DNA from: a virus
Lineage: Duplodnaviria; Heunggongvirae; Uroviricota; Caudoviricetes
Strand: one strand, 5' to 3'
Virus record (IMG/VR): IMGVR_UViG_2802429244_000018
Location: 1 to 46,327 of that record
Length of the DNA stretch: 46,327 bases
Shown here: positions 33,001 through 36,000 of the stretch, in pieces
Layout of the letters: each line of letters opens with the position of its first letter
Numbering within the stretch: position 1 is the stretch's first letter
Made by a program: the position numbers

Positions 33001-36000
33001 GTGCAAGCAAGGTAGTGGTTGAATGGTTGCCAATCGCTAACCGATTCATCATTCGCTCTGCCACTACTGGCGCAGAGAGTGAAGTGTCTTATGCCTCTGC
33101 TGGCGCTCTGGCTACCGGCTTGTTACTGACGCAGGATTCCGCAGCGATTGTATCACCGGGTTCTGATGCGGTAACTCTGACAGACACGATGAACAACATC
33201 ATCAACGTCAACCAGAACTGGATCCTGTTTAACTCGCTGGTCGAACTGACCGATGACCAGAAAACAGAATTGTGCGCATGGGCAAGCAGCAGTAAAAACC
33301 GGTTTGGATATGTTGTTCACGACACCACTTCAGCAGGTACGGTAGCCAATAATGCCAATTGCTTTGTGCAGAAAGTGGTTGTGGCAAATGGCTACGAGAA
33401 CATTTTTCCGGTGTACGGAACATACCTGTATAGCGTTACAGCACTGGCATATGCTGCATCCGTGGATTTTGCACGCACCAATGGGCGTATCTCGTTCAAG
33501 TTCCGTGGATTTTCAGGGTTAGCACCTAACGTCAGCGATCTGGCGACCGCTCAGGCACTGAAGTCAAACGGTTACAACTTCTACGGCTCATACAGCCTGA
33601 ACAAAACAATGGCGCAGTACGCATCTGATGGTGCCATTACTGGCAAGTTTGTATGGCTGGACAGTTTTATTAATCAGGTATGGATTAATGCCAATCTGGT
33701 TAGTGCTTTTGCCAACCTGTTCACCAATAATCAGTCTTACCCGTTCAATGAGACAGGATACGGCGCAGTGTCTGCCGCTGTTATTGATGTTGCTGAACAG
33801 GCTCTCAATTTCGGGGCTATTCAGCGTGGCGTGAAACTTGATAATGCGCAAACCAGAATTGTGAATAACACAGTTGGTAAAGATATCTCATCGACGCTGT
33901 ACTCACAGGGCTGGTTCCTGTACATCCCGACACAATCAGGCTCTGCACGCATTGAACGAGACCTGAAAGGTGTCATTTTCTATTATGTCGATGGTCAGTT
34001 AATCCAGTCCATCACAATGTCCTCAACCGCGATTTTATAAGGGAATAAATCATGCCTATCGATATTACCTCGGCAAACAGTAAGCTGCGAATCGTCGTAC
34101 CCGCTTACTACCCTGGCGGTTTTGATGTTGACGACTACGCAGCTGATAACATGTTTGAAACTGGCGCACTACAGAACAAAGAAGACATGATGTCAGCGGA
34201 CGGTAAATACCATGCTGGTTTTATCTTTAACCCGACAGAGTTCACCATCAACCTGATGCCCACATCTAATGCTGGCTCTCTGATTGATGACTGGTATGCA
34301 GCAGAGAGAACTGCAATTTCAGCGTTTCAGTGTAATGCGGTGCTTACAGTTCCGGCTCTCGGCGCGAAGTGGAATTTTGTGAACGGGGTTCTTTATACAT
34401 GGACTCCAACCCCTCCGGGTCGGCGCGTACTGCAACCACGCCCGGCAGTATTTCACTTTGAGTCTGTAACACGGAGCACTATCTGATGGCACGTAAAGAA
34501 ATCCCCTTTATCGTGGAAGACGATAATCGCGACAATGGGAAAGAGTTCATTATCACAGAGATGTCGGCATGGGATGCCGACGAACTGGCACAGGATTTAT
34601 TCCGCTCCATGGGGGAATCGGGATTCTCTGGTATTCCTGCTGATGTTATTGCCATGGGGTGTGCTGGCCTTGCCACCCTTGGTCTGAATGTTCTTTCTGC
34701 CGCATCGCCGGAAGTCGCCAGAAAACTTCGTGATCGCCTGATGTCAACTGTGCAAATTGTGATTACACACGAAGGCAGCAGACAGGTGCGAACCGTGAAG
34801 CCTGTCGACTTTGAAGAGGTATCAACCATTCGTCAGGTAATGGATAAGGTATTTAAAGTCAATTTTGATTTTTTAACGATCGCCGGAGAGTGAAGTACCC
34901 GTTCATGGAGGAGGAGACTCTTCCGGCAAAACTCGTTAGCCCCGTAAACGTCACACCATCAATGAACGCCATTATCTGTTCAGGAAAAGCCACTTATACC
35001 GATTTGCAGGAACGGTTATCTGTTCGTGATATGTATAACCTTCTGGAAATTATCTCGGTGGAATCATTTAACAAGCGGGTCTGGAATAAACATCAGGAGC
35101 AGCGATGATTATCAATGAGTTGGCCTACAAGGTCACAATTAAGGCCGATGAATTCCTGAATGGAAAACGGAAAGTAAAGCAGGAAGCACAAGACCTTAAA
35201 AACGAAATAGAGAGATCTTCATCTGCGATAGAAAGGTCAACAACCTCCTCAATGTCCAAAACGGCTAAGGAGACCGACAAAGCCGCTGTTGCAATGAAAG
35301 GGTTGACTGCTTCATTTAATGGTTTTTTGGGGCTTTCGACACGCTTTGTGGCTGTTGGCGGTGTGTTGACTGCCGTAGCCATTGGCATTCATCGTGCATT
35401 TGAAAGTACTTCGGAGTCAATTGTAAGAGCCAGTAATATGGGGAGAATGCTTGGAACAAGCGCCAGTAACGTTCTTGGTACTCAGTATGGATTCTCCCGA
35501 ATTGGTCAGAACGGCGGCGCGTTCCTTGGGGCACAGATGAGCGCCAGGATGGCGCTTGCCAATATAGAAGACCCAACAATTTTCGGCGGACTTACACCGG
35601 AGGCTCAGAATTTACTAACAACTGGAGCGAGAACAGGCATTGATATTAGTAAGCTTGGAGGTAAATCAGAAGATGCTCTGGCGGAATTTCAGAAATATGG
35701 GAAGAACCATAACGAGAAACAGTTAATGCAAGTGCTTTCTGCTTTTGGTTATGACCCTAATCTTGCCGGGGATATTAAAAGCGGAAAAGCTGTGCAGATG
35801 GTATCTGAGGAAGAAAAACGATGGCAGATGACCAAAGAGCAGGAAGAAGCACAGCGTAATATTCTTGCTACGACTAAAGCCCTTGACTCGCAATTTGCTC
35901 AGGTTAAACAAGAATTAATGGCTACATTTGGCCCTGAAGTGCTTAAAGCAGAACAGGAGTTTTTAGAGTGGCTGAAAAACAACAAGGGTGACATTGTTGG

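Follow-up and report, generated by a model that had tools for sequence, protein, structure and literature searches.

A predicted −1 ribosomal frameshift in the gene for the tail assembly chaperone of an Escherichia coli prophage

A well-known case of a phage tail assembly chaperone made in two forms, the G/GT pair of phage lambda, was reportedly described by Levin, Hendrix and Casjens in 1993 and by Xu, Hendrix and Duda in 2004, 2013 and 2014. Xu et al. are also said to have covered, in 2004, the myovirus versions of this chaperone frameshift, namely the E/E+E' pair of P2 and the gp41/42-type pairs of Mu. Here we analyse a candidate for the same arrangement in a 46,327-nucleotide stretch of viral DNA (IMG/VR record IMGVR_UViG_2802429244_000018, positions 1 to 46,327), the whole of which we refer to as the window and which contains a chaperone gene with an overlapping reading frame directly upstream of the tape measure gene. 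The window is a prophage of Escherichia coli, with 99% identity to the prophages of 20 complete E. coli genomes (20 listed of 21 matched). Two Edwardsiella myoviruses of the genus Gofduovirus, GF-2 and Edno5 (68% nucleotide identity), are related to it, as is Vibrio phage IKEMa6-1. In lambda, the two chaperone forms arise by a −1 frameshift mechanism and are made in a ratio of 30:1 (PMC5009743).

The chaperone gene lies on the plus strand at positions 34486..34893 of the window and encodes a protein of 135 residues, the zero-frame or "G-like" product. Close to its end, the codons GAT TTT TTA (Asp-Phe-Leu) contain the slippery heptamer T TTT TTA (34869..34875), and since position 34870 is the first base of a zero-frame codon, the heptamer stands in the X XXY YYZ register. 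Both the open reading frame (ORF) and this register, which had been proposed in an earlier reading of the sequence alone (the original prediction), were verified. Between the heptamer and the zero-frame stop TGA at 34891–34893 stand five codons (ACG ATC GCC GGA GAG), a gap of exactly 15 nucleotides where the original prediction, correct as to the position, had given about 16. The −1 frame is interrupted by a TGA at 34866–34868, opens at 34869 with the first base of the heptamer, and then remains open, as had also been proposed, until the TGA at 35106–35108. A tandem slip by one base would thus join the chaperone to the "T-like" extension (34875..35108, plus strand; 77 codons and a stop) at a junction that reads ...VNFDFL followed by NDRRRVKYPF..., and would yield a fusion of 207 residues; the fusion had been foreseen and its size put at about 205. 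A −2 shift on the same U6A sequence was also considered and was rejected, since it meets a TAA immediately (34874–34876) and would give no distinct product. No Shine-Dalgarno-like stimulator of the dnaX type is visible in the 20 nucleotides 5' of the heptamer.

Heptamers of the XXXYYYZ form are found in register 41 times in the 12,651 ORF codons of the window, which amounts to about one per 309 codons, and the chance of finding one within an eight-codon stretch that is open in both frames is about 2.6%. The T TTT TTA at 34869 is the one with the longest −1 extension (77 codons) among the 41. A single heptamer, taken alone, is therefore only mildly unusual, and judged by the sequences it is the conservation in relatives that carries the case well past chance. 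Elsewhere in the window, the portal gene (25292..26827) has an in-register A AAC CCT at 26803–26809, five codons before its end, with a −1 frame that is open for 50 further codons; this is a weak motif and its presence is probably due to chance.

Conservation was examined at two ranges. The close set comprised 64 IMG/VR loci together with phage and E. coli records, and 69 of its loci, with protein identities of 64–100%, were testable. All 69 possess an in-register TTTTTT(A/G), with TTTTTTG in one of them, and in all 69 the homolog of the downstream ORF is in the −1 frame. The Edwardsiella phages GF-2 and Edno5 share with the window the gene order, the T TTT TTA heptamer and the −1 extension. 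Codon usage at the site was then compared over 55 distinct sequences. The first heptamer codon ends in T in each of them (NNT 55/55; GAT 48, GAC 0), the second is always TTT (55, with no TTC), and the third is TTA in 54 and TTG in one, with no CTN codon. Neighbouring codons are free: two Phe codons are divided between TTT and TTC (31 and 24 at one, 19 and 36 at the other), an Asn codon is AAT in 29 sequences and AAC in 26, and a Val position uses all four codons. As read from these sequences, synonymous change is suppressed precisely in the three codons of the heptamer; selection here acts on the nucleotides themselves, and does so where a slip site would need it.

For the distant range, a scan with a degenerate pattern, limited to one genome per bacterial species, yielded 63 loci from Gamma-, Beta- and Alphaproteobacteria with identities of 24–81%. 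The extension homolog occupies the −1 frame in every one of these genomes (63/63), as it does in all of the 132 relatives that were testable overall. A canonical heptamer (TTTTTTA, TTTTTTT, TTTTTTG, TTTTTTC, GGGTTTT or GGGTTTC) lies in register inside the overlap at 58 of the 63 loci, and the remaining five have an in-register T_TTT tetramer at the homologous (D/A)-F codon, a motif class that constitutes the minimal −1 signal according to Sharma et al. (PMC4066793). In two phages, Burkholderia PE067 and Aeromonas 56, the corresponding position is occupied by G GGT TTT, and a −1 extension again follows. The −1 frame also varies in the manner of a translated sequence when 38 distinct sequences are analysed. 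Past the zero-frame stop, the column entropy reaches 1.41 bits at the third positions of the −1 frame, the remaining positions having 0.62 and 0.33, and the −1 peptide F-F-x-x-R-(R/S)-R-V-K-(Y/F)-P-F is conserved directly from the heptamer onward.

Some of these loci merit separate mention. Six that have the −1 extension but not a canonical heptamer show only the in-register T_TTT, for example as GCT TTT GTA or GAT TTT TCA: Klebsiella phage KP12 itself (L071), two Raoultella prophages near KP12 (L103, L105), and loci from Pseudomonas agarici, a Brachymonas metagenome-assembled genome (MAG) and Paraburkholderia (L095, L098, L102). Tail modules of the proteobacterial type also occur on contigs labelled as Chryseobacterium sp., a Saccharibacteria MAG, an Omnitrophota MAG and an archaeon MAG (L076, L092, L096, L107), the protein on the first of these being 80% identical to that of E. 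coli; contamination or mis-binning is the likely source of such odd host labels.

A protein search of 1.84 billion representative proteins was made with a naturally fused homolog, P0028, as the query. The matches split into chaperone-only proteins, which end at the junction (query residue ~133), and extension-only proteins. In-frame fusions, joined at the same motif, are rare: the query and two proteins (P0234 and P0131) among the best 150 matches. The gene for P0028, on contig L070 of a European Nucleotide Archive (ENA) metagenome, has a T9 run (AGT TTT TTT TTC AAT, 4388–4402), and a T8 run would restore the usual two-frame layout. The T9 may be a homopolymer assembly error, or this lineage may make the two forms in another way. 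The P0028 fusion, initially a candidate for strong evidence, was downgraded on the ground that a T9 in a single metagenome contig is possibly such an error.

The identity of the 135-residue protein is indicated by its full-length match to PHROG 1932, "tail assembly chaperone" (E = 4.6e-52; residues 1–134 on profile positions 1–133 of 134), a family name that is an annotation and not a tested function. An AlphaFold2 model of the protein, with a predicted local distance difference test (pLDDT) score of 74, was compared with predicted viral structures. It returned template modelling (TM) scores of 0.71–0.75, with E-values down to 8e-7, for phage entries named as tail assembly chaperone, among them those of myoviruses, or tape measure chaperone. 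The extension has a sole family match, to PHROG 3976 (E = 1.4e-15), in which no function is assigned.

From this pattern of frames, codons and conservation, we infer that a −1 slip of the ribosome on T TTT TTA gives rise to two forms of the chaperone, of 135 and 207 residues, and we put the probability of this at roughly 0.9. Most ribosomes would read 34486..34893 and stop, producing the 135-residue chaperone. In a minority, with the P site occupied by tRNA-Phe on UUU and the A site by tRNA-Leu on UUA, the ribosome would slip back by one base, and the slipped tRNAs would re-pair on UUU UUU and allow reading to continue in the −1 frame to 35108. The resulting protein would consist of chaperone residues 1–130 and a C-terminal domain of 77 residues. 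By analogy with lambda gpG/gpGT, both products may bind the tape measure protein while the extension recruits the tube protein, and the efficiency of the slip may set a fixed low share of the long form. A hairpin located six nucleotides downstream may boost the efficiency of an intrinsically weak heptamer. The original prediction had likened the locus to the conserved chaperone frameshift arrangement, and this likeness is borne out by the gene position, the chaperone-like protein, the −1 frame in the 132 relatives, the conservation of the slip site and the lack of a conserved start codon.

The candidate stimulatory hairpin (34882..34927, plus strand) begins after a spacer of 6 nucleotides and folds into a 10-base-pair stem with one bulge, GCCGGAGAGU / ACUC-U-UCCGGC, with a minimum free energy of −18.8 kcal/mol. 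When this helix is mapped onto the alignment of 38 sequences, 82% of the cells are paired, which is above slid controls. Changes on both sides occur at 3 of the 10 pairs, but these probably represent few independent events, and the doubly coding nature of the region confounds covariation. Two relatives (L057, L058) form an equivalent stem from a different sequence. RNAalifold, applied to the 38 distinct downstream segments of all clades, returned no consensus structure. Among 54 non-redundant family members with any heptamer, the mean folding z-score is −1.26, with z < −2 in 17, and a stem starting 4–9 nucleotides 3' of the site is found in 28 of the 54, compared with 13.7 ± 3.4 (maximum 20) in shuffles and 12–14 in positional controls from the same operons. 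We conclude from these foldings that the downstream hairpin would be a recurrent but dispensable helper across the chaperone family. This would be consistent with the literature on the heptamer: in E. coli, slippage at U_UUU_UUA is known but weak (PMC5009743), and the A-site codons UUA and UUG, which rely on stimulators, give less shifting than UUU and UUC (PMC4066793). For the phage of the window itself, the chances that the hairpin acts are evenly balanced. A downstream stimulatory structure had been named beforehand as something to look for, and the outcome is mixed: a moderate hairpin at a 6-nucleotide spacing is present and its like is enriched family-wide, but it is not universal and is of ordinary stability by the shuffling comparison.

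A number of observations weigh against a programmed slip at this locus. RefSeq, through the Prokaryotic Genome Annotation Pipeline (PGAP), starts a 67-residue hypothetical protein (WP_001311526.1, spanning 34905..35108) at the equivalent of the ATG at 34905. U UUU UUA is not among the E. coli motifs that shift by more than 0.1% without stimulators (PMC4066793), and the hairpin that might serve as a stimulator is no more stable than dinucleotide shuffles in single-sequence folding (z = −1.0). No comparable structure is found in the Edwardsiella/Vibrio clade, which includes GF-2 and Edno5 as the closest characterised phages, nor in two other clades. As to the chaperone, the Pfam profile PF21822 (Phage_TAC_15) is matched over positions 1–116 of 127 with 20.9 bits (E = 5.4e-4), under its gathering threshold of 22 bits. 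The same profile is matched at E < 0.01 by four of nine diverse family members, none of which outscores the protein of the window, and we regard the latter, on profile similarity, as a probable distant relative of Phage_TAC_15 without filing it as a member. In addition, PDB searches gave no solved structure that matches the chaperone, either by sequence or by Foldseek with the AlphaFold2 model.

The database call of a 67-residue protein corresponds to an explanation by two ordinary genes, in which the downstream ORF initiates alone at ATG 34905 (or at GTG 34890) and the heptamer is incidental. GenBank phage records likewise call a separate ORF, and a GGAG is present upstream of ATG 34905; this GGAG, however, ends 16 nucleotides before the ATG, outside the usual spacing. 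Most relatives have Leu or Ile in place of this ATG, and in 16 of the 38 distinct sequences ATG, GTG and TTG are all absent from the first 25 codons of the −1 frame. In Edno5 and GF-2, the annotated start is the first Met and lies 23 codons into the conserved region. Moreover, the peptide encoded upstream of ATG 34905 is still conserved and follows the third-position pattern of variation described above, and independent initiation would leave the invariance of the heptamer at synonymous sites without a reason. We consider it very unlikely that the downstream ORF is an ordinary gene of its own.

Slippage of the RNA polymerase would act on the same nucleotides: the addition of one U in the T6 run would cause part of the mRNAs to encode the fusion in frame, and nearly the same protein would result. 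The site is indeed a homopolymer run, some relatives have T7, and the metagenomic relative on contig L070 has a T9 and is fused in frame. Known bacterial cases, however, need longer runs, of about 8–9 or more (PMC5009743), whereas exactly T6 flanked by non-T is found in most relatives, including all 69 close ones. Strict conservation of the codon register is nothing that polymerase slippage would call for, and the distant homologs with G GGT TTT or T_TTT possess motifs for tRNA re-pairing and not long homopolymers. We consider polymerase slippage, too, very unlikely. One might finally suppose that there is no recoding, that the extension is a decaying or unexpressed remnant and that the pattern arose by chance, given how common in-register heptamers are in the window. 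Yet the extension protein is conserved over prophages of Gamma-, Beta- and Alphaproteobacteria with signatures of purifying selection, and the relative frame and the position of the slip are always the same. Because of this conservation a reading by chance is excluded, and we attach a negligible probability to it.

The ribosomal slip would take place within a tail module, in which sheath, tube, chaperone, extension and tape measure follow each other in this order on the plus strand. The tail sheath gene (32550..34040), of the DUF3383 or E217 gp31-like type, is identified by Pfam DUF3383 (E = 4e-107) and by PHROG 205 "tail sheath", and the E217 gp32-like tail tube gene (34052..34486) by Pfam E217_Gp32 (E = 5.5e-17). 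The tube gene is directly upstream of the chaperone gene, its stop codon overlapping the chaperone ATG, and the stop of the extension overlaps the ATG of the tape measure gene as ATGA (35105–35108). The latter gene (35105..36880, plus strand) encodes 591 residues that match PHROG 873, 2013 and 2276, families that bear the names "lytic tail protein" and "tail length tape measure protein", and the record of Aeromonas phage 56 labels its homolog as a tape measure. A Pfam search gave no match for the tape measure protein or for the extension. Between these tail genes, no promoter-like or terminator-like sites were found on the plus strand.

The tape measure gene is variable among the E. coli prophages. 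Homology is lost about 70 nucleotides into the gene (near 35178) in 15 of the 20 listed E. coli prophage records, and the tape measure of these 15 prophages is of another variant that contains an SLT transglycosylase domain. The variant in the window is without a Pfam domain and covers only the first 561 of the 1277 positions of PHROG 873. The break near 35178 looks like a mosaic joint, placed directly 3' of the frameshift cassette. Further downstream, a regulatory module similar to P22 immI is located inside the tail operon (36889–39850), between the tape measure gene and a Dit-like baseplate gene (39901..40716). It contains two Arc-family repressors (37444..37827, minus strand; 37924..38112, plus strand), a Bro-N/P22_AR_C antirepressor gene (38102..38812, plus strand) and a 152-residue ORF (36889..37347, minus strand) without matches, and Arc and Ant genes occur at the equivalent position in GF-2 and Edno5 as well. 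In a near-identical prophage of E. coli SC422 (NZ_LR778143.1; L004, 1244–2283), the annotation marks the major capsid gene (DUF2184) as a pseudogene with a frameshift, and this copy of the prophage is probably defective.

Frameshift annotation is absent from the records that were inspected (RefSeq E. coli genomes, GF-2, Edno5, Aeromonas phage 56 and Burkholderia PE067), in which the extension is a short orphan "hypothetical protein" where it is called and is uncalled in PE067. No mention of a frameshift was found in the paper on Edno5 (PMC6372524). The predicted 207-residue product is missing from protein databases because these records annotate no frameshift, and the main value of the finding lies in annotation; a simple rule for mending the records would be to look for T_TTT, in register, where the (D/G)F(L/F) motif is encoded. 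The locus would also be a bacterial example of slippage on U UUU UUA, and it leaves the understanding of tail assembly and of frameshifting unchanged. Tentatively, and with more doubt than confidence, one may picture a widespread family of proteobacterial myovirus and prophage chaperones whose slip site became settled at one conserved motif, (D/G)-F-(L/F). The site would be T-rich in every case (U UUU UUN, G GGU UUU or a bare U_UUU), roughly half of the lineages would have a hairpin that others have lost, and in-frame fusions or a T9 would turn up occasionally. If all variants were functional, they would form a natural allelic series for the tuning of a weak U6A-type site in bacteria through heptamer strength, hairpin or polymerase slippage, and, if true, this would document the bacterial use of a heptamer of the human immunodeficiency virus (HIV) type.

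Among known systems, lambda gpG/gpGT offers a close parallel in layout. Both loci have two overlapping ORFs on the same strand, after the major tail tube gene and ahead of the tape measure gene. In both, an X XXY YYZ heptamer precedes the upstream stop by a few codons, the long form consists, or in the window would consist, of the whole chaperone plus a C-terminal domain, and the gene pair is conserved by position more than by sequence. Unlike lambda, the phage of the window is contractile-tailed and has a candidate downstream hairpin, its pair is without detectable sequence similarity to lambda G or T, and its heptamer is U UUU UUA in place of G GGA AAG. The P2 and Mu-type pairs reportedly resemble it in the contractile tail, in their place after sheath and tube and before the tape measure, and in a −1 shift near the end of the first ORF. 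The chaperone of the window belongs to PHROG 1932, near Phage_TAC_15, and accompanies a sheath and tube of the E217-like or DUF3383 type, which would set it apart from those pairs by family. HIV-1 gag/pol has the identical U UUU UUA, a short spacer and a stem-loop, and a junction that is expected to be heterogeneous (Leu or Phe), as it would be here (PMC3458567, PMC5009743); the HIV-1 signal, in contrast, acts on the eukaryotic ribosome and joins unrelated proteins, and the heptamer is weak in E. coli without a stimulator (PMC4066793). The Edwardsiella GF-2 and Edno5 gp16/gp17 pair comes from the closest sequenced phages, with 68% nucleotide identity over tube and chaperone, and differs in that the records give gp17 as a separate 48-residue hypothetical protein and in that the hairpin of the window is missing there. 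At the level of sequence, every defining feature of the lambda G/GT class as set out by Xu et al. in 2004 is found at this locus. The second ORF of such pairs reportedly lies in the +1 frame in rare cases, and at the protein level the class is characterised by a short and a long product, the long one at a fixed low share, that are needed for tail assembly, bind the tape measure and tube proteins and do not occur in virions. The original prediction is correct and its outcome unsurprising: the locus is, judged by its sequence, an unannotated case of the well-known class of tail assembly chaperone frameshifts, and as such ordinary biology.

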